Assembly: GCF_963921235.1 (NCBI RefSeq)
Contig: NC_086108.1
Location: forward strand, 33,172,001 to 33,232,000
DNA from: Mobula hypostoma
Lineage: Eukaryota
DNA length: 60,000 nucleotides
Direction: 5' to 3'
Positions 9,918-55,302 of the stretch are shown here, in pieces (the stretch's first letter is position 1; each line of letters opens with the position of its first letter). The notes beneath the pieces are model-generated. The model did not search any database and was not told the origin of the DNA. It saw only the letters and a program-made list of their open reading frames with translations. Made by a program: the position numbers and the translations under genes.

Positions 9918-10090
9918 CGTCCCCCCTTTAAGGATTTTTACCGGGAGGTAAAAATTACAAACATGAATACATTATTTGATACACACACAAATATACATCT
10001 TTATCAGCTATTTGGCTAACACAGCGAGTTTGAAGTTGTCAACACCTTGACAGACAGTCATCACATTTTCTGTCCCTTTTATATGTGTTA

Positions 10091-10642
10091 TTAATAATAC
10101 CTTAGACCAGGCTCCAACTCAGCAAACTTCATAGTGGCCAAAAACACTGATGAATTTCGATCAATGTAACCTCTCATTTGGTTTTGTCCCGGACCACAAT
10201 AACAAGGGTCGTCCCATTCCGACTTAGTTTTCTCTCGCAAGGGCTTAGTAGGAGGGGGAGGGGTAGTGACCTCAGAGTTATTGCAAAACTTCCTACAGTA
10301 CCCCACCATCTCCAAGAGCCTTCTGAGGGCCCTCTTGTCTTTCGTGGTTGGGAGGTCAGCGATCGCCTGCACTGTAGCTTGCATCGCTGCCAGCTGCCCC
10401 TGTGTCACCACAATTCCCAGGTAAGTGACCCTCGTGTGGCCGAATTCATTTTTTTCAAGGTTCACTATCAAACTGGCTTCAGACAGCCGTATTAAATTGC
10501 CAATACACACCTCTGTGTTCGTCAGCCCTTTAGTCACTGAATTACTCATTATATATGGCTGTTGTTTGCTAGGCTGCCCTATTGTAACAGACATCACCCA
10601 ACGTCCCAGTTCTTTGCATCGCCTCGGGACAATCAAGCACAC
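10091..10642 (-). pseudogene. Eroded RT remnant of the Gypsy element
   Basis: 'RLSEASLIVNLEKNEFGHTRVTYLGIVV...VQAIADLPTTKDKRALRRLLEMVGYCRKF' matches the Gypsy RT C-terminal/thumb region. The YxDD position reads 'CIGN'. No RNase H. Confidence 0.8.
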
Positions 10643-10692
10643 GGGTGCGAGTCGTTTAATTACTTCTGCTAAAGATTCGCTTTGTTCGGGGA

Positions 10693-12966
10693 TTAAGGGA
10701 GAGACTTATCAGTAGACCTGGCCAAAACAATAGCCTTCTCCCATCTGATCGATCCCATACTAATCTTTTCAAAATGGTTTTTTCCTCTTATCAGGGGGCC
10801 CCTAGCTTCATTGATTTCCACGCTAACGCCGACTAGGTTTGTTAGCATATCAAAAGCCTGTGACCGTCTCAGTTCGCGTCGGTCATGATCAATAACATCC
10901 TTCCCCCTGGGCAGCCGGTAAACCTCTTTCATGATTCCACCAACTGCCTCCTCCAGCACCGCAAAATGTCCACCGGGGGGTACCTCGTGGGCCATGTTAG
11001 AAACCTCATCCCCATAACTCTTTTGCACCACCCCCCACTCCTCATCTGCGGGTACTGTACTTGATTTCCCTTTTTTCCTTAGCACTTCCTCCTCCACACA
11101 ATAGCCTACTAGTTCCCTTGTTAAAGCTGTGTCAGAGAGAGCTGTCTCTGCCGAAACCATCAGCCCCTCGTCTCGCTCCCGCGTCTGCACAAGTTCTTTC
11201 CTGGTTACTGCTACGTCTGTCCCAGCTCCCTCACTACCTCTTGTCTCACTACACCCCGTCTCATACAAGGTTGGCAGAAACGTTTCAGCTAAATTCACTA
11301 CCGCGGTCCCGTGATGAACCTGTGAGTCCATGGGCGGGGCCTCACTGCTGGCGGGCTGACCTGCCAATCTCACGACTGTGAACACGATTCCCCCGGCGAT
11401 GTCATTACCGAGCAAGACTTCCACACCTTTCATCGGTAATTCGGACCTCACCCCGATCGTGACTGGTCCAGAGACCAGGTTGCTCTGTAAGTGTATCTGG
11501 TGCAAAGGGACTGACTCTGTCCCTTCCCCAACACCTTTGACCTCTACCTCCCCAGTCTGGGTCTCTGAGCTAAACTCTAATACACTCTTCAGTATTAGTG
11601 ACTGACACGCTCCCGTGTCTCTCCAGATCCGCACTGGAACTGGTTTTAACCCCTCCTTCACTGACACCAATCCGGCCGAGATAAACCTCTCGCGCCCTTC
11701 CTGAACTTTTTCAGACCTGTCCTTCCCTAGCGGTTCGCTTAACAGCTTGATACAGCCATTCAAAATCGCTGTTTTTCCTTTTTCCGTCTCCTTCTTTGGG
11801 GCAAAGCACCTGGACGCAAAGTGTCCGGCTTTCCCACAATTATAACAGACGACCCCAGGAGACTTCCTACCAGACTGCTCCCGGTCTACCTTAACCTTCT
11901 CACTAGTCCCCGGCCTACTTTCTGACTTTTCCGGCGAACTCTCCCTGCTGTCCTGACTACCCTTCTGGTAGACTTTACTCGGGGCAAACTTCATTTTATG
12001 CGTCAACGCATACTCATCCACTAACTTAGCAGTTGCGGCAAACGTGGCTGCCTCTTTCTCATCGAGGTAGGGTCTCATACCCTCAGGGACACAACCTTTA
12101 AATTGCTCAATCAGGATCAGCTGTAGCAGTCTGTCATAATCCCCCTCTACCCCCTTTGAGGCGCACCAACGCTCACAATATGTCTGCGTCTCACGGGCAA
12201 ACTCCAAATACGTGCGGTCCCACTGCTTCCTTGCATTCCGGAACCTCTGCCGGTATGCCTCCGGGACCAACTCATAAATCCTGAGGATGGCCTCTTTTAC
12301 CACCTCATACCTCTGGGCATCTTCCGCGGACAAAGCTGAGTAAGCTTCTTGGGCTTTCCCTTTCAGTACACTCTGAAGTAAAACAACCCACTTATCCCTC
12401 GGCCAGTCCTGACTTATAGCCACTTTTTCGAAGTGGAGAAAGTACCGATCCACGTCGGTATCGTCAAATGGGGGAACCAGCCTAACCTCCTGGGTCGCCC
12501 GGAACCCTCCACCTTGGTTCGGCACGAGCCCCTGCTCGGCCCTTATCTTTAACTTCTCCAGCTCAAATTCCCTTTCCCTCTGTTTCTCCTCTCTCTCCAA
12601 CTGTCTGTCCCTCTCTTTCTCTTCTCTCTCCAACTGTCTCTCTCTCTCTTGTCTTTCTACCTCTCTCTCCTTCTCTTCTCGCTCCAACTGTCATACCCGG
12701 AACTCGTGCTCGAGTCTCAGTTTTTCAACCTGCACCTGTACCGCGTCTCCAGCAGGTTTTTCAATAGACACCACCCCCAGCTCGCCTTGGGGAAACACAC
12801 CTTTAGATACATAGTGCTCTACAATAGCTCTGTGCATCTCCTCTCTCCTCATTGTTGACTTCACCTTAGCAAGATTCAACCGTTTGGCCGCAGCTACCAA
12901 TTCCGATTTCCTGGCATCCTCTAATGCCTCCAAGGTCGGCGCCTTTATAAATTCCTCAGCCTCCAT
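10693..12966 (-). pseudogene. Gag-protease-(integrase N-terminal remnant) ORF, ~757 codons with one in-frame TGA at 12691-12693
   Basis: ORFs 12691-12966 and 10693-12687 are in the same frame. Contains an E/R coiled coil, a SCAN-like capsid (VPPFDD..YFLHFEK, YRQRFR, ILIEQF), a zinc knuckle CYNCGKAGHFASRC, protease motifs RDTGA and LLGND, and an integrase HH remnant 'AHEVPPGGHF'. Confidence 0.88.
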
Positions 12967-13042
12967 TTCTGCTGTTTGTCTTTTCTTTCTTTCGGGAATT
13001 TTAACCCAATCAATTTACTCCGTCCCAAATTTAGCGTTCAAA

Positions 13043-13060
13043 ATCCCGGACGAGCCCCCA
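13043..13060 (-). promoter_or_regulatory. Primer-binding site, tRNA-Pro
   Basis: The minus strand reads TGGGGGCTCGTCCGGGAT, the canonical tRNA-Pro PBS, 4 nt after the 5' LTR. Confidence 0.95.
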
Positions 13061-13064
13061 GTTA

Positions 13065-13904
13065 TGTTATGTACCTCGTAACTGGGTTGCCAAACCAGCA
13101 GAAATGGATCACTCAGTTGGAGTCTGGATTACTAGAACTAAGAAAGTTTTATTAAAGAAACAAGCAACACAGTAATCGAAAGGATAATAAATGCAACAGT
13201 TCAGCAATGATAAACACACATGTGCACAGAATTAAGATAACAGCATCAATCAAGCTCTATCGTTGTCTAGGGGTAAATGACCAATTTCAAAGTGACACAA
13301 AGTTCAGTCCAATTTAGTTCAGTTCGCAGTAATCGTTGCCATGGCGATGGACAACGTGGGGGGGAAGAGAGAGAGAGAGAACGGGAATGACTGATCATTC
13401 AGAAACGGCTTCCACTCACAGACTGGCGATATTGCTGACAAGCAGCTTTTGGGCGGGTCCTTTGTGATGTCACCGGCTGTGACCCCTCCTCCAGATGCGG
13501 TCGATCCTCTGCAGTGAACCCAGCACCCAAGCGAAGGTGGACACACACTGGGTTCCCGCTGATTGTACCTTTCCACCCTGTGCGTTTAAGGTCCGGTACG
13601 TCCCACTGACTCGTGAGAGGTGCACCGCTTCCAGGGTCTCGTTACCTCGGGTGTCGTGTGTGTCTTGCCTTAGCGAACCTGTCCCTTTTTATCCCCCTGC
13701 TGGGGTATCGCCTGTCCATCACTTCAAAACAGTTCAGGGTTCAAAGGGGGAGCCGCTCCAGACAGCTCTCTCTCTCCCGTCCCTTCATTACACATCTCCA
13801 GATGCTGTTTCATTGTGTTCCTTATCTCTCTCGAAGACAGGTGGCAGACCAACTGCTGATCACACAGGACAGCTAACATCTTATCTATGTGTATTCTTGT
13901 CACA
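13065..13904 (-). repeat. 5' LTR of the Gypsy element
   Basis: Direct repeat of 9069-9917 with scattered substitutions and a 10-bp indel; adjacent to the PBS. Confidence 0.95.
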
Positions 13905-15312: not shown

Positions 15313-15919
15313 TATTGGAAAATGTAAACGCATACATTGTATTTTCTATATTTACTATATATGTATTACAGTACTTACTCAACAGTATTTCAGTATTTAC
15401 TCGAATGCACACATTATATTTTCTATATTTACTATGTAACCACTGCTAGCTGAATAGAGGGTATTCACTATGTAGCCATGACTTTTGACCTAATCACTAT
15501 TAATTCATGAAGAGAACTAGAATGAAACCAAGTAGGAAGATAACGGTGGCGAGTAAGGTAATGAAATATGTGGCAGTATGTCAAAATAAGACTAATTAAG
15601 AAATAACTGGTTAGGGATGAGGGGACACCTGGTCTAAAATGTAAACCAGGACATAATTAAATTGGGGAGTAAAACAATAGTGGAAAGTCGAGAGCGGATA
15701 TATTGATGATATGTAATCACAGGCCGACAGGATATGATAATGTAGCTAAGATAGGAAATTGCTGTAAAAAAATGCTGTATACAAGCCTCGGGGGGCGGGG
15801 GGGCAGTCAGCAACTAGCTTTCTGATTGTCTCAGCTTTGATTTGCAAATTAAAGTTTAAAACTTCTTGAAGGATTTTCTGCGTCTCCTTGTCGTTTGTGA
15901 GAAACGAGAAACCACGACA
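15313..15919 (+). repeat. ERV 5' LTR
   Basis: Direct repeat of 18798-19372; begins TATTGG and ends CCACGACA; has an extra internal AT-rich duplication near 15335-15440. Confidence 0.92.
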
Positions 15920-15923
15920 AAAT

Positions 15924-15941
15924 TGGCGTCACGAACAGGAT
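15924..15941 (+). promoter_or_regulatory. Primer-binding site, tRNA-Ser(CGA)-like
   Basis: TGGCGTCACGAACAGGAT is complementary to the 3' end ...ATCCTGTTCGTGACG-CCA of vertebrate tRNA-Ser(CGA), as recalled. It lies 4 nt after the LTR. Confidence 0.8.
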
Positions 15942-16760
15942 CAGATAGAGACCTGCGAGGAAGGAAACGGCAGATTGGGGCACTTCCCGGTCCCTCGGGG
16001 ACCCTCACGGGGCTAACAGAATTAAGGGTGCACCCAAAGTAAAAAGGTGAGCGCTTTTTGCGATAATTTGGACTAAGAATTCTGTTGGTTTTGGGGGGTC
16101 TCGGGGACTCAGAAGTGTGAAGCAACTGCCGAAGGGTCTCTCCGATCCAAAGAATCTGGCAGAATTGGGGATAAAAGGAGGCTCAGAGAATTAATCAAGA
16201 GCACGGCCGTGGGGGTAAGTACGAATAAAGTAATAATAAGTTAAGTAAGAAAATTCCACGTGGTGTTGGTAAGTCCCTGTGGATACCGCTTCGCACAAAA
16301 CGAAGGGCTGAACAGGCAGGGAAGGAGAATTAAAAATCCTCGTGAATACTGCCTTAAGAAGTATAAGGGGCTGCATAGGCGAGGTGTAAAAGGAAAAGGT
16401 TCTGTGGATACCGCCCTAAGTAGGGGTCTGCACGGGCAGAATGTAATAAGAGATAAAGATAGTTTAATAGATAATTCAGATGCTGGTGAGATTAACCATA
16501 AGGCTAGGCATAGAAATAGAGTTAGGAAAATAGTACTATTAAATAGGCAAGTCATGAGATTCTAAAAATACCGTAATAGAAAAAGGAGAAAGAGAACAAC
16601 ATGACAGCGAAAGGAACAGCAGTAGAAATATTGAGCAGAAAATTCCCGGTGTGTCAAGGTAAGGTCGCAGAAATTTCAGAAAAATGGGAAAAAAAGAACT
16701 AAAGAACTGGTTACGAAATGGCCAAGAGAAGGAACATTTGATGTAAGCTTATGTGAGGAA

Positions 16761-18128
16761 ATGGAAGCGCTGATGAAACCTAAAGCACTAGCTATAGTAA
16801 AATGCCAGGCACATAAAAAAGGAAACGATGCAGTAACAAAGGGAAATCAAGCTGCAGATGAAGCAGCCAGGAAAGCGTCTGGGTGTACATCCGCTGTTAT
16901 TGCACCCCAGGTAAGTCTAGAGCCGGAACTTATGGTAGAGGACCTAATTGAAATACAGGGAAAGGCAACTTTGGCAGAACAAACACTGTGGAGACAAAGG
17001 GCGGCCAAGCAGAACTCAGAAGGCCTATGGACCATGGAAGATGGCCTACTGGTAGCTCCCACCCCTTTACTGACTATCCTGATCTCAGAGGCACATGGGA
17101 TGGATCATTGTGCAAGGGGGGAAGTAATGAGGAAAATAAAAAAGGATGGATTTTGGTCGCCTTATTTACAGGCTTCAGTAGACCATGTGTTGTCACAGTG
17201 CGAGGTATGCGTGCAGAATAATGTTCGAAAAGGAATTATAACCCCAATAGGTCATATACCCGTACCTGAAGGGCCATTTAAACACCTAGTGATTGACTAT
17301 GTAGACATGATAAAAACAGTAAGAGGGAAAAGATACATGTTGGTGGTAATCGATAGATTCAGCAGATGGGTAGAGGCAGTACCCTCGAAAGATCAAGGGG
17401 CAGGAACAGTGGTGAAATTCCTGACAAACGAAGTGATCCCAAGGTTTGGGATACCGACAGAAATTAGCTCAGACAATGGTTCAGCTTTCATCCAAAAAGT
17501 GGTCAAGTTAATACTGCAAGCACTGAGAATAAAGCAGAGATTTGGATGTGTGTATCACCCTCAGTCGCAGGGTATGGTGGAAAGAATTAACGGGACCTTA
17601 AAAGCCAAACTAAACAAAATCTGTGCAGATACTAAACTCAACTGGGTTGATGCACTACCGTTAGCATTAATGAGTTACCGCATGCAGACTAATCGGATGA
17701 CGTGTCTAACACCGCATGAAATGCTAACCGGAAGGCCCATGCCAGTGCCCCAGTGGAGAGGACCATATAAAGGGCCTAGTTTGGAACAATTGGAATTGGA
17801 ATTAAAACAAAAACAATACATGCGACAATTAACTATGATACATAAGTCTATTTATGCACATGAAAAACAGAAAGAGCCAGAGATCGATCAAGGGGAAGGA
17901 CCAATCAAGCCAGGCGATCAGGTCAACGTGCGAGCGTTTCGAAGAAAGTGGAACGAACCCAAAAGAGAAAGGCCCTTTATAGTAACCAAAGCATCACCCA
18001 CCGCAGTTCAAGTGGAAGGACGCTCCACCTGGTATCATCTCAATCACTGCACTAGAGCAATCCTGCAGGTACAGTCAGGTGGGCCACCCCAGGTAAGTGG
18101 TGAAGAGGAACAAACAGACAGGTACTAG
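16761..18128 (+). CDS. Retroviral RNase H C-terminus + complete integrase (455 aa open frame)
   Basis: RNase H end 'AIVKCQAH...GNQAADEAAR'; HHCC motif 'AHGMDHC...CEVC'; DDE motifs 'IDYVD', 'SSDNG', 'QSQGMVERING'; C-terminal 'WYHLNHC'. Confidence 0.88.
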   Translation: MEALMKPKALAIVKCQAHKKGNDAVTKGNQAADEAARKASGCTSAVIAPQVSLEPELMVEDLIEIQGKATLAEQTLWRQRAAKQNSEGLWTMEDGLLVAPTPLLTILISEAHGMDHCARGEVMRKIKKDGFWSPYLQASVDHVLSQCEVCVQNNVRKGIITPIGHIPVPEGPFKHLVIDYVDMIKTVRGKRYMLVVIDRFSRWVEAVPSKDQGAGTVVKFLTNEVIPRFGIPTEISSDNGSAFIQKVVKLILQALRIKQRFGCVYHPQSQGMVERINGTLKAKLNKICADTKLNWVDALPLALMSYRMQTNRMTCLTPHEMLTGRPMPVPQWRGPYKGPSLEQLELELKQKQYMRQLTMIHKSIYAHEKQKEPEIDQGEGPIKPGDQVNVRAFRRKWNEPKRERPFIVTKASPTAVQVEGRSTWYHLNHCTRAILQVQSGGPPQVSGEEEQTDRY

Positions 18129-18571
18129 ACTGGCTATTGGCAGAGAAAGGAGGAGTTTGTGTAATGTTTGGGGAACAGTGCTGTACTTCTATACCAAATA
18201 ACACTAGTCCAGAGGGATCATTTACCAGAGCAATGAATAAACTGAAAAATCTAAGAAAGGAAGTTAAACAAAATGCAGGGTTTGGACACCAGTTCTTTGA
18301 CTGGTTAAATAGTAAACTAGGAGGATGGGGAGCATGGCTGACTGAGATTGCAGTAACCATGGGTATTGTATTACTAAGCTGTGCGGTCATTCTGTGCTGT
18401 TTTCTTCCATGCCTCAAGTCGCTTGCAGTGCGAGCTGCAATGAAACGGTTTCTGATGCTTCTGGAAATGGTTGGGTTGAGCCCTATGGAGAAGGAGGCAC
18501 CGATGATGTATTCGTACAGTCTACGAGACACGCAAGATGAACAGGAGAGAGATGAAATATGTGGGGATTAG
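18113..18571 (+). pseudogene. Env TM subunit C-terminal remnant
   Basis: 'NRQVLDWLLAEKGGVCVMFGEQCC' (immunosuppressive domain + CX6CC), heptad repeat, and TM helix 'IAVTMGIVLLSCAVILCCFLPCL'. SU and the fusion peptide are deleted. Confidence 0.9.
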
Positions 18572-18797
18572 GCTGTGAAGGCTCCTGAGTCTTTTTCCCT
18601 GTCTCAGATACGAAGGGATGGGTTTTTGGCTCAGCGGCCTAGGGAGGTAGGGAGAGAACACTTTGAGTCTTAAGCGCAGGAAACTATAGTTTAACCCAAA
18701 TTTGGGAGTAAATGCGTGGCTTTATTTGAGCTTTTGTGCATAGACTCTCAGTCCTCTCTCTCTGTATGAGACCCTGTGGGTCTCAAAGGGCGGATTA

Positions 18798-19372
18798 TAT
18801 TGGAAAAATTAAACGCATACATTGTATTTTCTATATATGTATTACAGTATTTACTCAAATGTACACATTGTATTTTCTATATTTACTATGTAACCACTGC
18901 TAGCTGAATAGAGGGTATTCACTATGTAGCCATGACTTTTGACCTAATCACTATTAATTCATGAAGAGAACTAGAATGAAACCAAGTAGAAAGATAACGG
19001 TGGCGAGTAAGGTAATGAAATATGTGGCAGTATGTCAAAATAAGACTAATTAAGAAATAACTGTTAGGGATGAGGGGACACCTGGTCTAAAATGTAAACT
19101 AGGACATAATTAAATTGGGGAGTAAAACAATAGTGGAAAGTCGAGAGCGGATATATTGATGATATGTAATCACAGGCCGACTGCATATGATAATGTAGCT
19201 AAGATAGGAAATTGCTATAAAAAATGCTGTATACAAGCCTCGGGGGCGGGGGGGGGCAGTCAGCAACTAGCTTTCTGATTGTCTCAGCTTTGATTTGCAA
19301 ATGAAAGTTTAAGACTTCTTGAAGGATTTTCTGCGTCTCCTTGTCGTTTGTGAGAAACAAGAAACCACGACA
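18798..19372 (+). repeat. ERV 3' LTR
   Basis: Direct repeat of the 5' LTR, preceded by the PPT and followed by the TSD. Confidence 0.92.
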
Positions 19373-19376
19373 ATCC

Positions 19377-19820: not shown

Positions 19821-20566
19821 TTAGTGAGTGCAACTGTGCAATACTTTGTCATATTATTAAATTAAGTATTATATGTTTTATTGTACCAGTTATACACTGA
19901 AATGTAGTGACAGGCTATAATCTTGTTAATGTCTTAACTATCACTATATTTCTGTGGAGCTCTGGAATTCATATATTTCTTTCATCTTGGTTTAGTGCTT
20001 GACATTATAAGAAGCCCTATTCTCATTTTTAAAAATTTTTATATTATATATGAGAGAGAGAGAGAGATAGAGATACAGTATAGAAAAAATTAGCACTGCA
20101 CCCGATTTCAACCTATTCTGCTTGAAGTTTCAAGTCTAAAGACATGTAAAGTTTCCCAAAGGTCTGTACTTCCTGCAAGAACAAACAAATATTGAAGGAC
20201 AAACAATGCAATCTAGAGGCTTGCTTTCTGTCAGATGGGTTGTGCCTGTGAATTCTGTACAATCATGATGCTTTGTGTTTGTACACACATATGCATGCAG
20301 TAGTAGTGATAGGGCATATGCTGTTAAATATTGTAAGCTTTCTGATGTTTAACTTAGCAAAATATAGAAATCGAAAACAAAATTGCTGGTGGTATTACTT
20401 AAGGACATATACAACACTTACTCATTTTTCTTGGAAAATATCAAAAGGTTTTCTTTGAAACAAGCTTCTTGTTGACAACAGAATCTGTTACTGCATGTAA
20501 GTGAGAAGTTAATTGGTTCAGGTTAAAAATGATATTCAAAATTCATTTTCTATATAAAATTCATAT

Positions 20567-20572
20567 TTTATT
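20567..20572 (-). terminator. Candidate distal poly(A) signal for UCK2
   Basis: AATAAA on the minus strand at the end of an AU-rich unique stretch ~3.8 kb past the stop codon. Other AATAAA hexamers lie at 21514, 21904 and 23843. No transcript evidence. Confidence 0.3.
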
Positions 20573-21996
20573 CAAGCTTAGTGAGTCATTCCTTCAGTTT
20601 TTCACACTCTGTGGTTGGAGACTAACATACAATACATGGAAAAGTATGTGGGTGTGAAACAAGGAGTAAAATTTGACTTTTCCTGCAACAAAAAGTTACC
20701 TGTATTGTTACAAAAGCAAGAAAGGACCATTTTTGTCAAACAGAACAGCAGGTTAATTAATGTCCTTTTCAAGTTTAAATCTCCTTCACAGTAGTAGCAG
20801 GTATCACCAGAAGATGCACAACATTTTGTAAGTAGACCAAAACAATATAAAATTTGTCCATCAAACAGAACATTTGACAAAATATGATCATACTTGGTCT
20901 TCAGTAATGAACAGTTAAAGAATTACCAACTTTCCAGTTTTAGGCTTTTGCATCAGCCATCATCAGTACTTGCATCATCAGTAGCCTGTGCACTGCGGGC
21001 TTTCCCAAGTCAGTAACTTGGAAATACCATGCAGGGTTGGCAGGGCTGCTATCTAATGCCAACTTAAATTCCTCCAATCCCCCCCCCCTCAAAAAAACAC
21101 TAACAGAAGAGGCTCAATGCAACTGGTACATTAAATAAATTTGAAATGCAGCTCTGCAAAAAAGAAGTGCTGATTTATCTTGGAACAGGTTACAATAAGT
21201 TTTAAAATGGATCAAAGCAGGACATGCATTGCAGCTTTAAAAAAAAAATCACAGCAATTCAGTTAAATGATTTAGTTGACCTTGAAATGAATACTGGTAT
21301 GAAAAGAAGCTTTAAGTACTATAAAGTAAAAAAGCAAAGCCAGATGTACAATCTGGCTTAAATTAGAAAGTCAATCAGCATTTAAGAAGTGAAAAATTTT
21401 CTTTGGGTGCAACCTTTCATCAGAACTAGGAACTGGAGACAGCAATAAATGGATTTAGTAGACAAAACTGACAGACATATCACATGGAAAACAAATAATT
21501 TTGCATCAGCTTCTTTATTTGATGGCCTTAATAGAAGCCACTTTCTCCCGCTTTTGATGAAAATTCTTCATCTGAAACTGTAACCTGAAAAGTAGTGTAG
21601 GAATATTCTCATGCTTGGACATACAAAGCAGTTAAGAAAAATGAAGAAAAACATAAATCCACCTTAAATGTTTACAAACAAAGACTACCATCAGGATATT
21701 GAACTAAATTACAGGTTTAAAAGACCTATATTTTACAATAAGGGGACGGGATAAATGTGGTCCGGCAGGTTGAACAGAGATAAAGTGAAGGAACCCCAAG
21801 ACTTTTCCCAGAAGTGATTGTGTAACATTTTCAAACTGAGCTCACTAAGAATTCCAATATCCTTCCCACTTGGTCATGCAAGTTCCACAAGTCCAACTCC
21901 ATCTTTATTCAGAGGGTCTATAATTTATGTAAAAAAATCATCCCACTGGCACATCAGGTTAGAAGATAAAGCCATTCAGTGCAATGAAATACAGTA

Positions 21997-22742
21997 CAGT
22001 GGATTCTGGTTAATTGGGACACATTGGGACCAGTATATTTTGGCCCAATTAAGCTGCTGTCCCAATTAGCTGAAGTTTCATGGAAGTAGCTAAAAAGGTA
22101 TAAAAAAGACTGACTGCCAATTAACTGAGTAACAAATTATATATTTAAATGAAATACAGAACAAATTAGAACACTACCAATAATACTATAGTACTTTAAA
22201 AGGTGTATTAGTTTATCACTAGAGGAATTTATCTGGTGTACGCTACCGTGTTCTTTTGATTGACTGTACATGAACAAAATCAGCACAGACGCCCAGTGCA
22301 GATAATGGACTGCCTGTATACAATGCTTTCAATGATTGCGTCTGCCAAATCTTCATCTTCATTGTAACATTCAAGATGATTGTCGATACCATCAAATCTT
22401 TCATGTTTCATTTTCACTTTTGGCCACTTGAAGCAACAGTGAGCAAAACAGCTCTGAATTGTCTTGCAGCTTATTTTTCCAAAAACAATCAGTGACAAAA
22501 ATCACTGCTCTTTGAACACAAACACACGCAACTGGCACCAGATAAAAAATTGTTCACTCCATGCACAGTGTACTGTTTAATGGACACACAAGTGCATGCG
22601 ACTGATGTTAGTTAGAAATTGTTCAGCAACAACCCCAATTAAGTGGCACAGTGTCCCAAATAAACAAAGGGAAAGGGAATCCCAGCTATTTTCTCTATTA
22701 GTTTTGTCCTTTTAGAGTGTCCCAAATAATTGGAATCCACTG
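21997..22742 (-). mobile_element. Non-autonomous Tigger-type element
   Basis: TA-cagtggattc...gaatccactg-TA termini; transposase C-terminal remnant 'ISCKTIQSCFAHC...IDNHLECYNEDEDLADAIIESI'. Confidence 0.8.
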
Positions 22743-23088
22743 TATTTAAATATTGCTGCACAGGCATTAATACCTGGCATTATTTGTAACATTGAAACTT
22801 GTTCCCAGTATATTTCTCAAATCAAAGCTAAACTACAAAAGGACAATATTTGTCTTATAATATATATTTCCATCTAAACACAAACATCCTTTGTTGGATT
22901 GCAATTCTTTGATAAAAGACATTTGCTTGAGCATAAACATTTAAGAACTCAAAAAGCAGGATGTCACTCTTAAGTTACACAACAAACAAAATAAATTTGG
23001 CAAGTTAAATACTTTAGGAAAAAGAAGCAACACACATCAAAGTTGCTGGTGAACGCAGCAGGCCAGGCAGCATCTCTAGGAAGCAGTA

Positions 23089-23126
23089 CAGTCAACGTTT
23101 CAGGCCGAGACCCTTCGTCAGGACTA
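23089..23126 (-). ncRNA. Minimal hammerhead ribozyme motif
   Basis: Minus strand: tagtc-CTGACGA-a-gggtctcggcct-GAAACGTT-gactg. Stem I agtc/gact, palindromic ACGT stem III, GUU at the cleavage site. Confidence 0.7.
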
Positions 23127-24104
23127 ACTGAAGGAAGAGCTAGTAAGAGATTTGAAAGTGGGAGGGGGAGGGGGAGATCCAAAATGATAGGAGAAGACAG
23201 GAGGGGGAGGGATGGAGCCAAGAGCTGGACAGGTGATTGGCAGAAGGGATATGAGAGGATCATGGGACAGGAGGCCCAGGGAGAAGGAAAAGGTGGGGGG
23301 GGGGAGAAAAAACCCAGAGGATGGGCAAGGGGTATAGTCAGAGGGAGAAAAAGAAGAGAGAGAGAGAGAGAGAAAGAATGTGTGTACATAAATAAATAAC
23401 GGATGGGGTACCAGGGGGAGGTCGGGCATTAGCGGAAGTTAGAGAAGTCAATGTTCATGCCATCAGGTTGGAGGCTACCCAGACGGAATATAAGGTGTTG
23501 TTCCTCCAACCTGAGTGTGACTTCATCTTTACAGCAGAGGAGGCCGTGGATAGACATATCAGAATGGGAATGGGATGTGGAATTAAAATGTGTGGCCACT
23601 GGGAGACACTCTGTCCGCCAGGGAAAGCAGGATCTCCCAGTGGCCACACATTTTAATTCCACATCCCATTCGCATTCTGATATGTCTATCCACGGCCTCC
23701 TCTGTTGTAAAGATGACGCCACACTCAGGTTGGAGGAACAACACCTTATATTCCGTCTGGGAAGCCTCCAACCTGATGGCATGAACATTGACTTCTCTAA
23801 CTTCCGCTAATGCCCCACCTCCCCCTCGTACCCCATCCGTTATTTATTTATATACACACACATTCTTTCTCTCTCTCTCTTCTTTTTCTCCCTCTGACTA
23901 TACCCCTTGCTCATCCTCTGGGTTTTCCCCCCCTCCCCCTTTTCCTTCTTCCTGGGCCTCCTGTCCCATGATCCTCTCATACCCCTTTTGCCAATCACCT
24001 GTCCAGCTCTTGGCTCCATCCCTCCCCCTCCTGTCTTCTCCTATCATTTTGGATCTCCCCCTCCCTCTCCCACTTTCAAATCTCTTACTAGTTCTTCCTT
24101 CAGT

Positions 24105-24142
24105 TAGTCCTGACGAAGGGTCTGGGCCCGAAACATCAACAG
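24105..24142 (+). ncRNA. Minimal hammerhead ribozyme motif
   Basis: tagtc-CTGACGA-a-gggtctgggccc-GAAACATC-aacag; core boxes intact, stems I and III partly decayed. Confidence 0.6.
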
Positions 24143-24390
24143 TACCTCTTCCTAGGGATGCTGCCTGGCCTGCTGTGTTCACCAGCAACTTTGATGTGTG
24201 TTACATGATTTTCCAGCATCTGCAGAATTCCTCATGTTTTACTCTAGGAAAAATTCCATTTTGGTGGTAGAAGTGAATTTTGCTTTGAACAACGCTTTGA
24301 AACCTTGGCAGCTTTCCCTTTTCCCCCAAACAGTAGATGGTAAAGTCATGCTAAACTTCATTGCAAGACTTCACTCTCCTCAACCTTCAG

Positions 24391-24527
24391 TCAGTGTGGT
24401 CTGCTGTTGGAATCAGAAGACTCCCTCTTACATGGTGTACTATATCCATTCAAACAGCCATTTTGGCGCTTGCTCAGTCCGCCGTTGAGAAGGTCTTGGA
24501 TGTGTTGCACTATCAAATTTATGGCAA
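24391..24527 (-). CDS. UCK2: Uridine-cytidine kinase 2, last coding exon (exon 7)
   Basis: ccag|TTGCCATA acceptor; '(V)[44 protein letters not shown]'; UCK2-type C-terminus; TGA at 24391-24393. Confidence 0.96.
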
Positions 24528-25505
24528 CTGGTATGAAGGAAAAGAACAAGAATTGTTTCAGCAGCTTAAACAAATACATATGACTATATTACACAGACTT
24601 TAAAAGATTTCTTATGCCAGCACTCCCCATTCCCACAGATTCAACTTGCTAGCAAAAACTTTAAATAAATAGTTATCCAATTTGCATTTCTCTTTAAAAT
24701 ATAATTTATATTTTAACATCTCAGGATCAGTGGCTAAATTACTACTGATTGCTGCAATCTGACACTGGGTCTATAATTAAGTAACATCAACAACCATGTA
24801 ATGAAAGTCAAATCACATGGACAGGTAATACAAGCAATCATTTCCACAGCACAAATTCTGATACAGATTATTCAGAAACATTTCCATCCAAGATGCAGCA
24901 TTTATATTCAAAAAGTTGTAGAATTCCTAGCAGGACAGACTCAAGGTTATAGCTCATCTGCCAAGTTACCTTTTGCACTGTGCCAATTTCAATGCATGCA
25001 ACAGGCCAAAACGAGTTCTTTATTAATTTACTGATCTCCTCAAAAATAAATCAAAAATCATTCCCTTACTATACACAAAGAACGAAGGCAATTGGAAGAG
25101 ATTTCAACAGCCACAGCAGCATCATTATATTTTTACCTTACTGTTCCTCAATATAACATTTCTAAACCTATTCCTTTATTTTCAAATGTTACATTTCTAC
25201 CTGCAGGCACAATTCCATAATAGATCAGTGTATAAAATGAATATCTGTGGTAAGATACCCCTTTTGCTCAATTCCCTGATTATGTTTTACTGAATTCAAT
25301 TAACTGCACACAGACAAGTGATGCATGTCAGTTCTTTAAGACATCAAATTTCACAAGTTTATCACCTCATTACCATAGATACCTTTATTCAAAAACATTG
25401 CTTCACAAATGTCAGCTGACGCATCAAACCAGTCAAGTTATTTGCCAGACACAGTTACAACTCCCACAGCATTCAGCTCTTAAAAATATAGCAGGGTGAA
25501 GCAGT

Positions 25506-26160
25506 CCAGAATCAGAACCAGGTTTATTATCACCGGCATATGTCGTGAAATTTGTTAACTTAGCAACAGCAGTTCAATGCAATACATAATATAGAAGAAA
25601 AAAAAATAATAAATAAGTAAATCAATTACAATATACATATATTGAATAAATTAAAAATTGTGCAAAAACAAATATATTAAAAAAGTGAGGTAGTGTTCAT
25701 GGGTTCAATGCTCATTTAGGAATCGGATGGCAGAGGGGAAGAAGCTGTTCCTGGATCGCTGAGTGTGTGCCTTCAGGCTTCTGTACCTTCTTCCTGATGG
25801 TAGCAATGAGAAAAGGGCATGCCCTGGGTGCTGGGGGTCCTTAATAATGGACTCTGCCTTTCTGAGACACCGCTCCTTGAAGATGTCTTGGGTACTTTGT
25901 AAGCTAGCACCCAAGATGGAACCGACTAAATTTGCAACCCTTTGCAGTTTCTTTCAGTCCTGTGCTGTAGCCCTCCCCCCGCCCCGCCCAACACCACACA
26001 GTGATGCAGCCTGTCAGAATGCTCTCCATGGTACATCTATAGAAGTTCTTGAGTGTATTTGTTGACATACCACATCTCTTCAAACTCCTAATGAGGTATA
26101 GTTGCTGTCCTGCCTTCTTTATAACTGCATCAATATTTTGTGACCAGGTTAGGTCCTCAG
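25506..26160 (-). mobile_element. Rex1/Babar LINE 3' fragment
   Basis: 'IFKERCLRKAESIIKDPQHPGHALFSLLPSGRRYRSLKAHTQRSRNSFFPSAIRFLN'; (TTCTGA)n-type tail; same family as 38385-39518. Confidence 0.85.
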
Positions 26161-27117
26161 GGACTTAACCAGCAGTTTGACAGCTACCTTTTTCTGTTGA
26201 ACGGCTGCAGTTTAGGGTGCTGGGCTCAACAATTCCGGTGGGCCACAGAAGCTTGTTTTGTTTTTTGCATTGCTAGTTTATATAAACTTGCTCCATTCTG
26301 AAGAGCTTGGCAGATGAAAGAGCTGCCATTGCAACAGAATCCTCTGCTCTTTGTGCAGAGACTGCCAGGTCACAATTGTACATGCAATTTGATAGTGTCC
26401 TTCAGGATTAAAATTAGTCAACTATTTAGCACTAGCGATGACAAGGACTCATAAAAGGATGCGTACTCCTTCAATTATTCTGACAGAGTAGATGGCCAAT
26501 AAAGAGATCAGGTAGAATCAAAGTATGAATGTGTCACAGCATTCAGGTCAGATGCTAAGATGAAAATAAAGTTATCCCATTAACCGAATTCTCACAGAAC
26601 AGAAAGTATAGCTCCACAGCACAGATTCTGATTTTTATTGGTATATTAGCATCAAGGGTATTAAAGTTAAATTCAATTCCATAAGGTGCAAATACAGAAT
26701 TAATTTAACTTTGTAAAAAACTCTGTCATTTCTGATTTCTAATAATAGATCACTCATTGGACCTGTATTGGAGAGCCATTACATATATGGGGGCAAGAAA
26801 TAGTTCTCTGATGTAACCTAAAAATCAATGTTTTGGATCACCCAGTTACCATCTTTTCATTAATATCAATAATCATCTAAGACTTTGTCAAGAAAGTTCT
26901 CATTTGATGCAGTTCTGACTAAACACATTTCAGATGTTCAAGAGAGTCTTTTGCAGTGCAGGCAATAAGCCAATGTAGATGTGTCAGGGGAAAACTAAAA
27001 CACTTAATGCCAGTTGCCAATCTCTTCCAAGGTCATCTATAAAAACAAAGTAGAATGCTAGCAGCAAAGGAATTATTGAAAAGCTTAATTCAAAAAAAGC
27101 AAAGGGAAATTTCATAC

Positions 27118-27166
27118 CCAAGTTTTCTGCTCCTCTTGGAATGATGACATCTGCATACTTCTTGGT
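27118..27166 (-). CDS. UCK2: Uridine-cytidine kinase 2, exon 6 (49 bp)
   Basis: acag|ACC...TTGG|gtatga; 'TKKYADVIIPRGAENL(V)'. Confidence 0.96.
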
Positions 27167-29689: not shown

Positions 29690-32600
29690 CGAGAGCGAGA
29701 ACCATTGAAAAGAGCAAGTCTCGTCATTTGTAAGATGCACTTGGCCGAATAAAAAGTAGTGAGGTTTAGGTGGTATTGGACAGAGTTAGAGTGGGGAACT
29801 GAAGCCTTGGCAAAAGGAGGCAGAGGCCAAGGACTTGAAGGCCAGTTTGAATCGGCCGCTGTGTAAGTGGACCAGTATAGGAGTGTTGGTCCGTGCCTTC
29901 AGCAAAGAGGCAGAGATGAGTAGCAGGTAACAACAGGCACAGTCAACTTAAAAAAAACAAATTACAACTAATTAAATAAAGTAGGGATGCAGGATCAGGT
30001 GATTCCTTGTAGTTGCAACATGTAGGAGCTGATGGACCCCATTGGGCATGCCACAGATCCTAAGGAAATGTTGGCATGGGCCAATTAAAAGAAGGTAATC
30101 TTAAGCGGAGCAGCCATAGTGCGAGTAGGCCAGTGTTAGAGTGGGGAGCTCAGACTTTGGTGAGGGGAGGCAAAGACTATAGGTAGAAATTCTCGTTTAA
30201 TTTTTCTTTCTTTCTTTGAGCAGTGGTGATGCCAAGCAGGAAACCTCCAGCGTCCAAGATGACTACACCTGCAAGGAGTGCGCCCAGCTGCAGCCTCTTT
30301 CAGACCTTGCTGAGGAACTAGAAGCAGAACTGGATTTGAACTCCGGATCATCTGGGAGGCCGAGGGGTTGATTGACAGAACATGTAGCCAGGTAGTGCAG
30401 GACAGGACCATCAGGAGGGTGAAAGGGGATAGGCAGCCAGTGCAAAATACCCCCGTGCACGTCCCGCTCAACCACAGATGTACCACTTTGGATACTCTTG
30501 GAAGGGGGTGATGGTGGTGGGTTAACCTCGCAGAGGAAAACCACAGCGGTCAGCTCTTTGGCACACTATCTGCCGCTGTGGCTTAGAAGGGAAGGAAGGT
30601 GAAGAGGAGTGTAACAGTCATAGGGGGTTCCATAGTTAGAGGAGCAGACGGGAGATTCTGTGGGTGTGGAAGAGACACCTAAATGACATGTTGCCAGGGT
30701 CAGAGATGTCTCAGATCGGGTGCGTAGCATTCTGAAGGGGCAGTCTGAGCAAATGGAAGTCGTGGTACATAATAGTATTAATGACATGGGCATGAAAAGG
30801 GAGAAGGTCCTGAAGAGATTACTGGGAGTTGGGTAGAAAGATGAAAAGTTGGACCACCAGAGTCGTAATCCCTGGACTGCTGCCTGTGCCATGTGCCAGT
30901 GAGGGGAAGGACGATTTTGCAGATGAATGTGTGGCTGAGGAATTGGTGCAGGGGACAGGGTTTCAGATTTCTGGATCACTGGGATCTCTTCTGGGGAAGG
31001 AGTTACCGATACAAAAAAGAAAGTTTGCACCCGAATCGGAGGGGGAACAATATCTTTGCATGCAAGTTCAGTAGAACTGTTGGGGAGGGTTTAAACTAAT
31101 TTGGCAGGGGGTGGGAACCAGAGTGATAAGACTGAAGATGGGCATTTTGTATCCATCTAGATGCAGCATGTAGTGAGACCGTGAGGCAGGTGATGGGGCA
31201 AACTTGCAGTCAGTGGGATGACAAGGTGTAACAGGAGTTCAATTTGAAAAGGGTGACCAATACCGGACTGGAGGTGTTGTATTTGAGTGCATGCAGTTTA
31301 CAAAATAAGGTAGATGACCTTGTAATGCTGTTGGAGATTGGCAGGTATGATGTGGGCATCACAGAGTTGTGGCTGACAAAAAGATCATAGTTGGAAGCTT
31401 AACACCCAAGGATACACATTGTATTGAAAGGACAAGCAGGTATGCAGGGGGGGCTGGGATGGCTCTGTTGGTAAAAAGTGAAATCAAACCCTTAGAAAGT
31501 GGAAACATAGGAAGATGTAGAATTGCTGTGAGTGGAGTTAGAAACTACAAGGGTAAAAAGACCCTGATGGGAGTTATATACAGGCCTCTGAACAGCAGTC
31601 AGGATGGGGGGTATTAATTACAACAGGAGATAGAAAAGGCATGCAAAAAGGGCAATGTTACTATAGTTATGGGGGATTTCAATATGCAGGTAAATTGTAG
31701 AAAATCACGTTGATGCTGGATCCCATGAGATGGAATTTGTAGAATGCCTACTGGGTGGCTTTTTAGAGCAGCTGTCATTAAGCCCACTGGGGGAATGGTA
31801 ATTTTGGATTGCGTGTTTTGTAATGAACCATTTTTGATTAGGGAGTTAAGGTACAGAAACCCTTGGGAGGTAGTGATCATAATATGATAGAATTCAGCCT
31901 GCAGTGTCAGAGGTAAAAGATAAAGTCATATGGATCTGTATTGCAGTAGAGTGAGGGAATTAGAGGCATGAGAGAGGAGCTGTCCAAAGTTGATTGCAAG
32001 GGGACACTAGCAGGGACGATGGCAGAATAGCAGTGGCTGGAGTTTCTGGGAGCAATTTGGAACCTGCTGTATAGATACATCCCAACCAAAAAGTATTTTA
32101 AAGGGAGAGTGATGCATCCGTGGCTGACAGGGGAAGTCAAAAACAGCATAAAGGAAAAGAGAAGGCATATAATATAGCAAAAATTAATAGGAAGTTAGAG
32201 GATTGGGAAGCTTTTAAAAAACAACAGAAGACAACTAAAAAAGGCCTTAAGGAGAGAACAGGAAATATGAAGGTAAGCTAACCAATAACATAAAAGAAAA
32301 TGCAAAATGTTTTCTTCAGATATACAAAGAATAAAATAGGTGAGAGTGGATATTGGACAGCTGGAAAATTAGACTCGCAAGGTAGTAATGGTGGGGGGGG
32401 GAGAGAGTTGGGAAATCAAAGAAATAGTGGTGAAACTTAAGCAAAATAATTATTAAATCTTCACTATGGAAGACACTAGCAGTATGCCAGAAATTTGGAA
32501 GTGTCAAGGGGCAGAAGTGAGTGTAGTTGCTATTCCCAAGGAGAAGATGTTTGGGAAGATGAAAAAGTCTGATGATAGATAAGCCACCTGGACCAGATGG

Positions 32601-35300
32601 ACTACACCTTAGGGTTAGAAAAAGGAGTAACTGAAGAGATTGTGGAGGCATTAGTAATCTTTCAAGATTCAATAGACTCTGGCATGGTTCTGGAGGAACC
32701 ATTGCAAATGTTGCTCCACTCTTTAAGGAGGGAGGCAGAAGAAGGGAAATTATAGGTCACTTAGCCCGACTTCAGTGATTGGGAAGATGTTGAAGGAGTC
32801 TCTTATTAAGGAAGAGGTTTTCGGGTACTTGGAGACACATGATAAAATAGGCCAAAGTCAACACTGTTTCCCTCAAGGGAAATCTTGCCTGACAAATCTG
32901 TTGGAATTATTTGAGGAAATAACAACCAGGACTAACAAAGGAGAGCCAGTCGATACTGTATACTTAGATTTACAGAAGGCCTTTGACAAAGTGTCGTACA
33001 TGAGCTGCTCAACAAAAGCTCACGGCATTATGGGAAAGACACTGGCGTGGATAGAAGACTGGCAGGAGGCAAAGAGTGGAATAAAGAGGGACTTTGCTGG
33101 TTGACTAGAGGCAACTAGTGATGTTCCTCAGGGGTAGGTGTTGGTATTGTTTATTTTCACATATGTAAATGATTTTGATGATGCAATTGATAGCTTTTGT
33201 CCCCCATGTTTGCAGATGATACAAATATAGGTGGAGGGGCAAGTACTGTTGAGGAAGCAGGGAGTGGGAATAAAGAGGGTCTTTTCTGGTTGGTTACCGA
33301 TGACTAGCAGTGTTCTGTAGGGGTTGGTGTTGGGACAGCCTTTTTCCATGTTATATATCAATAATTTTGACGACAGAATTGATGGCTTTGTGGCTATGTT
33401 TACAGATGATATGAAGATAGGTGAAAGGGCAAGTGGAATTGAGGAAGAAAGGAGTTTGCGAAAGGACCTAGATAGATTATGAGAATGGGCAAAGAAAATG
33501 GACAATGGGCAGATGGAATATAGTGCAGTAAATTATATGGTCATGTACTTTGGTAGGAAGAAAAAAAACGCATGGACTATTTTCGAAATGAGGTGAAAAT
33601 GAAAAAAATCAGAGGTGCAAAGGGACTTTGGAGTCCACATGAAGGATTTCCTGAAGGTTAAGTCAGTGGTATGGAAGGGAAATGCAATATTAGCATTCAT
33701 TTCAAGGGGACTAGAATATAAAAGCAAGGATATAATGCTGAGGTTTTATAAGGCAATGGTCAGTCCACACTTGGTGTATCGTGAGTAGTTTTGGGCTCCT
33801 TATCTAAGAAGAGATGTGCTGACATTGGGGAGGGTCCAGAGTAGGATCAAGATAATTATTCCAGGAATGAAAGGGTTAATGTACATGAGGAGCATATGAT
33901 GACTCTGGGCCTGTACTCACTGGAGTTTAGAAGAATGAGGCCGGGGATCTCATTGAAACCCATCGAACACAGAAAGGCCTAGATCGAGTGGATGTGGAGA
34001 GGATGTTTCCTATAGTAGGGGAGTCTAGGGCTAGAGGGCATAGCCTCAGAATTGACAGACGTCTATTTCCAATAGAGAAGAGGAGGAATTTCTTTTACCA
34101 GAGGGTAGTAAATCTGTGGAATTACCTGCCACAGATAGTTGTGGAGGCCAAGCCATTGGGTCTATTGAACATGGAGTTTGATAGGTTCTTGATTAGTAAA
34201 GTTGTCAAAGGTTATGAGGAGAAATCAGGAGAATGGGGTTGAGAGAGAGAGTTAAATCAGCCGATATGGAATTGCCCAGTAGACTCGATGGGCTGATTGG
34301 CTTAATTCTGCTCTTTTATCTTTTGGTCTTATTGCAGTCCCGGATGTCCATATTTGCAGCAAGTGTTGGCTGCTCGATGAACTCATGGTCAAACTTGACC
34401 TGGAAATGGAGCTTAAAACACAAGAGTTACCTTGACACTGTTTCAGGGGGCAGTCATTCATTGGATTAATTCCTTCAAGTTCAGACTGTGGTCAGAGGAA
34501 AGAGGGTGTGACTGTGTTTCAGGAAGATACAAGGGTCTGAGTGGTGGTGCTGGAGAAGCTTCAGCCCGTGAGCTTTTCCAGCAGGTCTGAGAGTGTGGCT
34601 TGCTGTGAGGATTGCAAGTGGGGACTGTACAGAGGGTGAGCAACTGAACCACGGCATCATGGGTCAGGAAGCCATTCAAAGAAAGGGAGAGAAGTATAGC
34701 TGTAAATGGGGATCGAAAATAGGAATATATACAATTCTCTGTTCCGAAGGCTGTGTTGTTTTTGACTGTTTTGTCCTTTGCCCAGGTTCAAGACATCTCA
34801 TTGAACCAACAGAGGAATTTGGCATGGGAGGGAAAGGTTCAGTTGTCATGGTCCACGTGGTGATCAACGACACAAGAAAAACAAGGAAAGAGGTTCTTCT
34901 GCGGGAATTTGAACAGCTAGAGACTAAATTAAAAATAAGACCGAAAATCGTAATAATCTCTGGATTGTTACAGAGAGCCAGACGCGTGGCTTAAAGATTG
35001 GTGTGGGAGGTGGGTTTGAATTTGTGAGATATTGACACCAGTATTGAGAAAGGAGGAAGCTGTTCTGATGGGATGGGATGAGCTCCACCAGAGCCTCACT
35101 GGGACTAGGCTCCTGGCACATGGCACAACTAGGGCTGTGGATAGGGTTTTACACTATATAGTAGTGAGGTAGGTTCAACAGCTTGAAAGGTGAGGATAAT
35201 GTAAAAGAGAAGGAGAGTGCAGGAGAGGTTATCCAGGTCTCCAGAATAAAGAGCAAGGCAAAGAGTTTATAAAGGGATGAAAATCTAACTTCAGGCAACA
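29690..35300 (+). mobile_element. Older CR1 5' part (5' UTR + ORF1), split by a second CR1
   Basis: ORF1 zinc finger begins 'MQDQVIPCSCNM' (~29987) and resumes as 'VPDVHICSKCWLL' (~34337). Esterase remnant 'VVMVHVVINDT' at ~34850. Confidence 0.65.
30045..34330 (+). mobile_element. Full-length but decayed CR1 LINE (ORF1 esterase + ORF2)
   Basis: ORF1 remnants 'NVWLRNWCRGQGFRFLDHWDLFWGR'; ORF2 remnants 'YLDLQKAFDKV' and 'RRNFFYQRVVNLWN'; many stops; attg duplication at 30041 and 34331. Confidence 0.88.
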
Positions 35301-36189
35301 CCTAGACAAAATTGAGAAGGCTACTTTGTCTTATGTAGATTGTATTATGTATAGTTTTTGATAAATTCTATTGTATTTCTTCATTTTCTTGTAAATGCCT
35401 GCAAGAAAATGAATCTGAAGGTAGTACATGGCAACACAAGTACTTTGGTAATATACGTTTTTTTTTAAACTTTACTTTTCCTTTATCAATCCCTTAATTC
35501 TTCTTCACCAAATCTTGAAATCTTCACAATCTCTAGGCTTGCTGTTTTATTTTTTGGCAATATTCTCAGTCTTTTGACTTCTTTTCAAAGACATGGCAGG
35601 ACCATAGTTCTATTTATTTTGCCCTTAGAAAACAGCTTACATGTAATATATTTTTTAATTCTTTTAAACTTGGCCATAGCTTGTTTACCATCATGCTTCT
35701 TTCTGTAGTGTTTCACTTTACAATAATTAACTGATGCCTCACAGGTTTATAATTTGCCTTGCTTACATTTAAAATCCAGTTTCAGATTGAACAAAATCAC
35801 CTTAATTCTTTTTTTTTACATAAAATTATATATTATAATCCCACGTCCTTGAAAGTCCCTTACTCAGAACAATCAAACCCCTTCTCATTACACAATATCA
35901 GATCAAAATATCCTGCTTCCTTGTTAGTTCCTCAGTAAAACAGTCTAAACAACCATCTTTATCCATCATGTGAATTCATTCACCATGTTTTTTGGTAAAG
36001 TTGGTTTGCCAGAATTATGTAAATTAAAGTGTCCATATTTATTGCTTTACCTTTGTTACATCCTATATTACCATTTTTGTTTAAAGGCCTTTATACACAA
36101 TTCCACCAACTCCCTCCAAAATGATTCTACTTCATTTCTGATATGATTCCTCCTCCTACTGCCTTTAAACCTTCCTTTAAAATTGGGCA

Positions 36190-36568
36190 ACACACATCAA
36201 AGTTGCTGGTGAATGCAGCAGGCCAGGCAGCATCTCTAGGAAGAGGTGCAGTCGATGTTTCGGGCCGAGACCCTTCGTCAGGACTAACTGAAGGAAGAGT
36301 TAGTAAGAGATTTGAAAGTGGGAGGGGGAGGGAGAGATCCAAAATGATAGGAGAAGACAGGAGGGGGAGGGATGGAGCCAAGAGCTGGACAGGTGATTGG
36401 CAAAAGGGATATGAGAGGATCATGGGACAGGAGGTCCAGGGAGAAGGAAAAGGTGGGTGGGAAGCCCAGAGGATGGGCAAGGGGTATAGTGAGAGGCACA
36501 GAGGGAGAAAAAGGAGAGAGAGAGAAAAAGAATGAGTGGAAAAAGAAGAGAGAGAAAAAGAATAAGTG
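36190..36568 (-). mobile_element. Penelope-like 3' UTR fragment
   Basis: Nearly identical to 23030-23380; perfect 10-bp TSD aaattgggca (36180-36189, 36569-36578). Confidence 0.85.
36249..36286 (-). ncRNA. Minimal hammerhead ribozyme motif
   Basis: Minus strand: tagtc-CTGACGA-a-gggtctcggccc-GAAACATC-gactg; sense with the UCK2 pre-mRNA (intron 5). Confidence 0.68.
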
Positions 36569-55300: not shown

Positions 55301-55302
55301 CT

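Follow-up and report, generated by a model that had tools for sequence, protein, structure and literature searches.

A head-to-head pair of truncated Penelope-like element copies in the UCK2 3' UTR of Mobula hypostoma, with a long predicted hairpin

Penelope-like elements (PLEs) have been described as units in which an inverted, 5'-truncated copy is joined to the element, with a tail of 30-40 bp on one end and a target-site duplication (TSD) around the whole (10.1101/2021.04.23.441226), and two sites at which reverse transcription starts are reported as the source of the tail (PMC11167929). Neptune- and Nematis-type PLEs are marked by a CX2-5CxxC linker and by cysteines lying between the endonuclease's GIY and YIG motifs (10.1101/2021.04.23.441226). 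Minimal hammerhead motifs are a further property of metazoan PLEs, and opposite-strand pairs of them 100-700 bp apart were already noted by Cervera and De la Pena (2014, PMC4209133). According to the same source a single minimal PLE hammerhead does not cleave in vitro and multimers cleave little, and the PLE hammerhead of an anole is reported to need the protein of the element (PMC11167929). Penelope repeats are heavily hyper-edited in a lizard (PMC5625713). In Xenopus, PLE-related retrozymes are reported as depleted from exons, with the exonic cases lying mostly in 3' UTRs (10.64898/2026.07.22.740005). Narrow literature searches returned no mention of UCK2 together with an inverted repeat or transposable insertion in its 3' UTR and, among titles and opening lines of abstracts on Penelope in Chondrichthyes, nothing on a hairpin of the type considered here.

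We analyzed a palindrome that a first-pass annotation had placed just behind the UCK2 stop codon in a window of 60,000 nucleotides from Mobula hypostoma (contig NC_086108.1, positions 33,172,001 to 33,232,000; coordinates below are those of the window). The insertion resembles the EN+ Neptune/Nematis unit (10.1101/2021.04.23.441226) in its inverted truncated copy, its 30-40-bp tail on one end and its TSD, and the likeness extends to a C-terminal GIY-YIG domain with CxxC, a CX2-5CxxC linker and a hammerhead in the pLTR. Unlike in the canonical unit, both copies at UCK2 are cut to their last ~600 nt, leaving a near-symmetric palindrome without coding capacity. Its hammerhead agrees with the minimal metazoan PLE motifs (PMC4209133) in being of type I, without helix III, with a palindromic ACGU, a short helix I and an extra base between positions 9 and 10.1, but helix II is short (3 bp), the two motifs lie about 1 kb apart and they are located in a host 3' UTR. 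Inverted Alus in human 3' UTRs (10.1101/2023.11.30.569399) offer a second comparison, the likeness being a long transposon-derived dsRNA, predicted at UCK2, that use of a candidate proximal poly(A) site would leave out of the mRNA; the UCK2 structure differs in having arisen from one insertion instead of two independent SINE insertions and in its longer (~560 bp) and tighter (93%) stem with a 26-nt loop. As a repeat predicted to supply its own dsRNA it is also like the hyper-edited Harbinger repeats of frog and Penelope repeats of lizard (Porath et al. 2017, PMC5625713); lizard Penelope is named there as massively edited. The reading that we consider probable is one head-to-head insertion of truncated PLE copies, through which the UCK2 message likely reads, with a hairpin of ~560 bp that is probably a tolerated passenger and a predicted ADAR substrate.

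Comparison of 23010-24253 with its own reverse complement (BLAST) gave an inverted match of 92.3% over 1,207 columns, with ungapped arm segments at 23017-23308/23923-24214 (92%) and at 23359-23606/23633-23880 (95%), the latter pair lying 26 nt apart (Table 1). The 14-bp TSD that the first-pass annotation had drawn around the palindrome was recovered with 13 identical positions and is flush with both element ends, and this one TSD also upholds its claim of a single insertion event; as a chance control, 23 of 300 random position pairs scored as high under a loose search of +/-45 nt. The annotation had further described arms of ~570-580 bp around a 26-nt loop. The arms stand, while the loop is not a spacer, because it matches longer copies of the element: the truncation point of the right arm lies about 26 nt further 5', and the two arms join on a single common base at 23606. 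Of 557 aligned columns, 38 distinguish one arm from the other, and left-junction contigs occur in four independent runs, in agreement with the earlier opinion that the palindrome is real. Along its whole length the right arm matches family copies at 88-94%, and its 3' region is as in a copy (L131) that retains a long coding frame. The right arm is further from the family majority than the left (5.4% vs 3.2%; 25 vs 13 private changes, p=0.07), a gap that we set aside because half of the reference copies came from the left-arm query.

Table 1. Features of the palindrome and of UCK2 in window coordinates
Feature	Position	Strand	Remarks
Distal AATAAA	20567..20572	-	19 nt before furthest contig end
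Distal UCK2 3' UTR past element	20548..23009	-	Near-contiguous contigs in X5, X10, X15; includes MITE 21995-22744
TSD, left copy	23010..23023	.	Junction filled by contigs of runs X5, X9, X10, X15
Left arm, inverted tailless 5'-truncated PLE copy	23025..23606	-	PLE sense in UCK2 mRNA
Minimal type I hammerhead, sense in UCK2 mRNA	23089..23126	-	Core intact; triplet GUU, GUC in most copies
Right arm, 5'-truncated PLE copy with tail	23606..24239	+	PLE sense on +; antisense in UCK2 mRNA
Hairpin loop, unpaired 5' overhang of right arm	23607..23632	+	Element coding sequence; matches longer copies L004, L012, L022, L036
GIY-YIG endonuclease, C-terminal 66 codons	23610..23810	+	Right arm, translation; left-arm mirror about 23605-23429 (minus)
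Element-supplied AATAAA	23843..23848	-	Candidate signal; same hexamer in 32/54 aligned arms
Second hammerhead motif	24105..24142	+	Core broken (GAAACATC); antisense in UCK2 mRNA
PLE tail, ~37 nt	about 24203..24239	+	Right arm only; left arm without
TSD, right copy	24240..24253	.	13/14 identical to left copy
UCK2 final coding exon	24391..24527	-	Ends ...SRPH*; stop TGA 24393-24391
UCK2 upstream exons	near 27157, 37869, 45692, 51435, 51670	-	Sequence matches

The Penelope origin proposed by the first-pass annotation is borne out by the GIY-YIG C-terminus encoded in the arms, by the RT-EN frame of a related copy and by the PLE-type unit. The 66-aa GIY-YIG piece from the arm alone gave no Pfam match, nor did the RT piece of a longer copy (L012), whose full endonuclease domain matches Pfam GIY-YIG (E 3e-4, below the curated cut-off). 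In L131 a single frame of 1,058 aa runs from RT to a C-terminal GIY-YIG (Pfam RVT_1, E 4e-5, below cut-off); the arms match this copy at 88% and have the same C-terminus and the same end. In L131 the GIY and YIG motifs enclose a pair of cysteines (GVIYCVRCSRCGLLYIG), and two motifs with His come after them, the CCHH arrangement; in both L012 and L131 the RT and EN are separated by a CX4CX2C linker, CKRNKCYTC, which fits Neptune or Nematis. One ORF with RT and GIY-YIG is a family feature, shown by the single frame of L131 and the GIY-YIG domain of L012, and absent from the truncated UCK2 copy itself. Judged by its motifs, the element in the arms is a Neptune-like EN+ PLE, the clade being a motif assignment, with a linker that fits Neptune and Nematis alike.

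How large the family is was seen with a 154-aa RT piece as query, which returned 50,702 first-look candidates; the 150 that were scored were all 96-100% identical. No strand-biased C>T mutation was found in it (C>T 0.013 and G>A 0.017 per site per copy). At another locus (L046, 1109-2853) the arms of a head-to-head pair are 0.4% apart, share 21 variants against the family majority and are enclosed by a TSD of 15-17 bp; this pair is a very young insertion of a distinct subfamily, so the family has been active recently. The window itself contains a further, tailless single copy of 350 bp (36187-36538, minus; 91%) inside a UCK2 intron, and an older PLE relative (2603-3126, plus; 68-80%).

To the first-pass annotation the arrangement seemed special, a view that the abundance of such pairs does not support. 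For an unbiased sample we took twelve 50-kb blocks (600 kb) at coordinates on large contigs that were arbitrary and round, not random, and kept for the count those matches that were 84% identical or more and extended to the 3' end of the pLTR, dropping older and inner-only ones from 56 matches in all. The resulting 21 young 3' segments or pairs divide into 13 singles and 8 pairs, each of the pairs being head to head and none tail to tail, and these pairs are accordingly a routine product of the family. In seven of the eight, one arm is tailed, the other is not, and there is a TSD of 13-16 bp; the eighth (B00) is without a clear TSD. Extrapolated to the genome, there would be ~46,000 pairs (Poisson 95% 20,000-91,000), mostly with short stems; in the sample seven of eight stems are under 100 bp and one, of 367 bp, exceeds 300 bp. 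Many short pairs and singles in the unbiased blocks (L061-L120) start just inside the hammerhead, at arm positions 486-512, a clustered 5' truncation. The similarity search yielded 57 loci, of which 24 are pairs; 10 of these 24 have stems of more than 500 bp, including two near twins of the UCK2 palindrome (L009 and L057; stems 565 and 545, gaps 46 and 24). With ten such stems, two of them with gaps below 50 nt, the UCK2 hairpin lies at the long end of the size range yet is not unique. A long arm is combined with a short one, the copy ends lying ~37 nt apart, in 27 of the 32 other pairs (7/8 unbiased, 20/24 found by similarity).

The host gene is encoded on the minus strand, and two of its exons are closer to human UCK2 than to UCK1 (E 3e-23 vs 1e-18 and 1e-13 vs 4e-5); its final exon gave no Pfam match. 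From the stop codon it is 137 nt to the TSD and 151 nt to the element. A hexamer scan of this interval found neither AATAAA nor ATTAAA, the first AATAAA being that at 23848-23843, and both the distance of ~150 nt and the missing AATAAA had been noted correctly before. The ~3.8 kb that had been taken for the ancestral length of the 3' UTR is its present length including two insertions, and without the palindrome it amounts to ~2.6 kb (coordinate arithmetic). The second insertion is a MITE-like element of ~750 bp (21995-22744). It carries terminal inverted repeats of 28 bp (86%), has TA at either end, is present in high copy number, as seen from contig pile-up, and was found in organisms A, B and C. 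We take it to be of Tc1/mariner or pogo type.

Sequencing runs were used to follow the transcript and the insertion. Part of 20500-24600 is contained in 20 runs; in organism A, four probable RNA runs contain 0.76-0.79 of its words and DNA runs 0.81-0.84, and in organism D the share is 0.08-0.09. Contigs were compared over 20500-23280 in four of 24 runs, X5 (organism A), X9 and X10 (B) and X15 (C), of which X9 is DNA and the other three are presumed to be RNA, a guess backed by their contig ends since no run is recorded as RNA. In X5, X10 and X15, from three studies, contigs extend from 20548-20576 to 23048-23071 and break only in repeats. They cross additional AATAAA/ATTAAA hexamers at 21909-21904, 21519-21514 and 22581-22576 (minus). 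The contigs of the probable RNA runs end at 20576, 20565 and 20548, and that of the DNA run continues past 20500. Shared ends are a weak hint by the method's own rating; together with a hexamer at the expected distance they make the distal AATAAA (20572-20567) the likely main UCK2 poly(A) signal. The UCK2 mRNA likely reads through the element to this signal, and the 3.8-kb UTR then holds the whole palindrome. Read-through with a hairpin, as first proposed, is thereby retained for the flank, which is covered down to the distal AATAAA, and remains likely by inference for the palindrome, with no contig of the four runs spanning both arms in the 20500-23280 interval, outside which the centre and right junction lie. 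Contig depth beside the element and in the distal UTR was 129 vs 228, 131 vs 270 and 63 vs 81 in the three probable RNA runs. We made no use of this contrast, since the depth of contigs is no measure of RNA level, and either a 3' bias or a block to reverse transcriptase would mimic it.

At the left junction all four runs pass from the flank into the element for 24-48 letters, with X15 (48) alone satisfying a 31-letter rule and the others reaching 24-29; the X5 contig has no differences over its 25 element letters. Because the junction continues into the element in every one of these runs, the insertion is common to organisms A, B and C, the presence in relatives that the first-pass annotation had proposed to check. 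Flank differences among the three organisms number 19 in 1,439 and 37 in 1,475 letters, and the arm differences of 38/557 are in keeping with an insertion older than their splits.

In a read-through RNA the minimum free energy (MFE) fold predicts 564 arm-to-arm pairs, as expected from the earlier proposal of a long hairpin that buries the sense hammerhead. A long dsRNA stem of this kind is a textbook ADAR substrate. The change spectra contained no excess of T>C over DNA, in contigs that pool thousands of PLE copies and cannot resolve the UCK2 locus. Apart from five shared variants, four of them in a low-complexity tract, no alignment column had compensatory arm changes. The 26 arm transitions on the UCK2 strand divide evenly into 13 G-U wobble and 13 A-C mismatches, as expected without selection for pairing, in a test that rests on these 26 transitions and could miss weak selection. 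The stem thus shows no sign of upkeep, and the arm differences look neutral. Retention in three organisms inside a 3' UTR, despite the exon depletion reported for Xenopus, leaves room for a function.

The palindrome is one of several repeats in the window. Decayed LINE fragments occur at 3783-6575, 30585-34331, 41772-45011 and 53046-60000, with endonuclease and RVT_1 matches at 3783-5783; many lie in UCK2 introns and in both orientations, so that the pre-mRNA would also contain further inverted pairs of a looser kind. A 680-bp repeat is found in opposite orientations (85%) in two UCK2 introns (25512-26180 and 38838-39518). A retrovirus-like element at 15313-19373 has direct repeats at 15313-15920 and 18798-19373 (92%) and frames that match RNase H, integrase (rve, MLVIN_C) and env (TLV_coat); neither gag nor RT was found among its long frames, and for this reason it looks internally deleted. 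The element at 9069-13904 resembles an LTR retrotransposon: its direct repeats measure ~850 bp (95%), and a frame of 665 aa on the minus strand contains SCAN and zf-CCHC domains.

In the preferred reading a single PLE insertion behind the UCK2 stop codon would have brought in two truncated copies, head to head, and integration would have proceeded through target-primed reverse transcription, either at both nicked strands or involving a switch of template. The UCK2 mRNA would be continuous across the palindrome to the distal poly(A) signal, and its hairpin may be edited as an ADAR substrate and otherwise carried as a presumably neutral passenger in the manner of inverted Alus (IRAlus).

The first-pass annotation had proposed a combined poly(A), dsRNA and ribozyme switch, an idea weakened by the routine nature of the pair, by the lack of selection for pairing and by the reported failure of lone minimal hammerheads to cleave. 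Its poly(A) component deserves separate consideration: some UCK2 mRNAs would end hairpin-free at the element-supplied hexamer (23848-23843), the rest would be dampened by the hairpin, and the ratio would set the UCK2 level. Such control is reported for IRAlus (10.1101/2023.11.30.569399), the insertion is common to three organisms, and the hexamer is transcribed about 240 nt ahead of the partner arm, so that it could act before the stem closes. Against this, the hexamer is a common family feature, and the 60 nt downstream, read by eye, are purine-rich with no evident U/GU-rich element. The distal UTR is moreover covered in the probable RNA runs of A, B and C, and the stem carries no signal of selection. 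We therefore regard such a switch as unlikely, and were it real, it would match a mechanism known for inverted Alus and not add a new kind of control.

UCK2 transcripts may instead end in or before the element, with the RNA that covers the left arm and the flank as far as 20548 arising as a separate transcript from the left-arm pLTR or being released by cleavage. The left arm does lie in PLE sense and is directed down the UTR, a promoter is attributed to pLTRs (PMC11167929), and no contig bridges the palindrome. This explanation is nevertheless improbable, given that the interval from stop to element offers no poly(A) hexamer, that probable RNA and DNA runs contain a near-equal share of the 4.1-kb stretch, and that the same cover recurs in three studies.

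A third alternative is a ribozyme off-switch, in which the sense hammerhead would cut the UCK2 mRNA between 23094 and 23093 if the hairpin were opened or helix III supplied in trans. The motif itself, which the first-pass annotation had located accurately, is supported by inspection and by the literature: the left arm retains the core CUGACGA...GAAACGUH and stem I (UAGUC/GACUG), and of the two arms it alone has the full set of minimal hammerhead features (CUGANGA, extra base, helix II, GAAA, palindromic CG, UH and helix I). Family RNA is abundant in the runs, with thousands of contigs, so trans partners exist. An intact core is, however, the family norm (41/54 arms) and no sign of selection, the triplet has decayed to GUU, and helix III is missing, monomers of this type being described as inactive and dimers as weak in vitro (PMC4209133). 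The MFE folds never form the hammerhead, either alone or within the UTR, and 46 of the 49 bases of its region pair with the opposite arm. Rfam gave no match over the whole window at E<=1, which is uninformative because minimal PLE hammerheads are without helix III. Contig ends and joints inside the arm (e.g. 23088, 23125) were rejected as marks of cleavage or splicing; they occur in the DNA run as well and come from other family copies. By analogy with the published motifs we infer that the lone UCK2 hammerhead is inactive, which would leave little ribozyme activity to switch, and this alternative is very improbable. A fold-back chimera of the assembly can be dismissed almost entirely, for although assemblers are known to have difficulty with inverted PLE structures (10.1101/2021.04.23.441226) and the comparison with run contigs covered only the left of the two junctions, the arm differences, the family-typical asymmetric ends, the flush TSD and the left junction in four runs all speak against it.

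As one of many such insertions, the UCK2 locus in itself carries little weight. Its value lies in offering a well-defined test: the ~560-bp hairpin predicted in the UTR of a housekeeping gene of a cartilaginous fish is fixed and 93% paired, and a unique centre junction and 38 arm-distinguishing positions would make editing, export and poly(A) choice readable per molecule. It is a long shot that in this fish lineage the PLE family, by making tens of thousands of one-step hairpins, provides an IRAlu-like layer of dsRNA within which the poly(A) signal that came with the UCK2 insertion would, through the choice of site, determine whether the mRNA has the 560-bp hairpin and so tune a nucleotide-salvage enzyme. 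If the poly(A) switch were true, control of the IRAlu type would have a counterpart outside mammals that a retroelement made in a single step.
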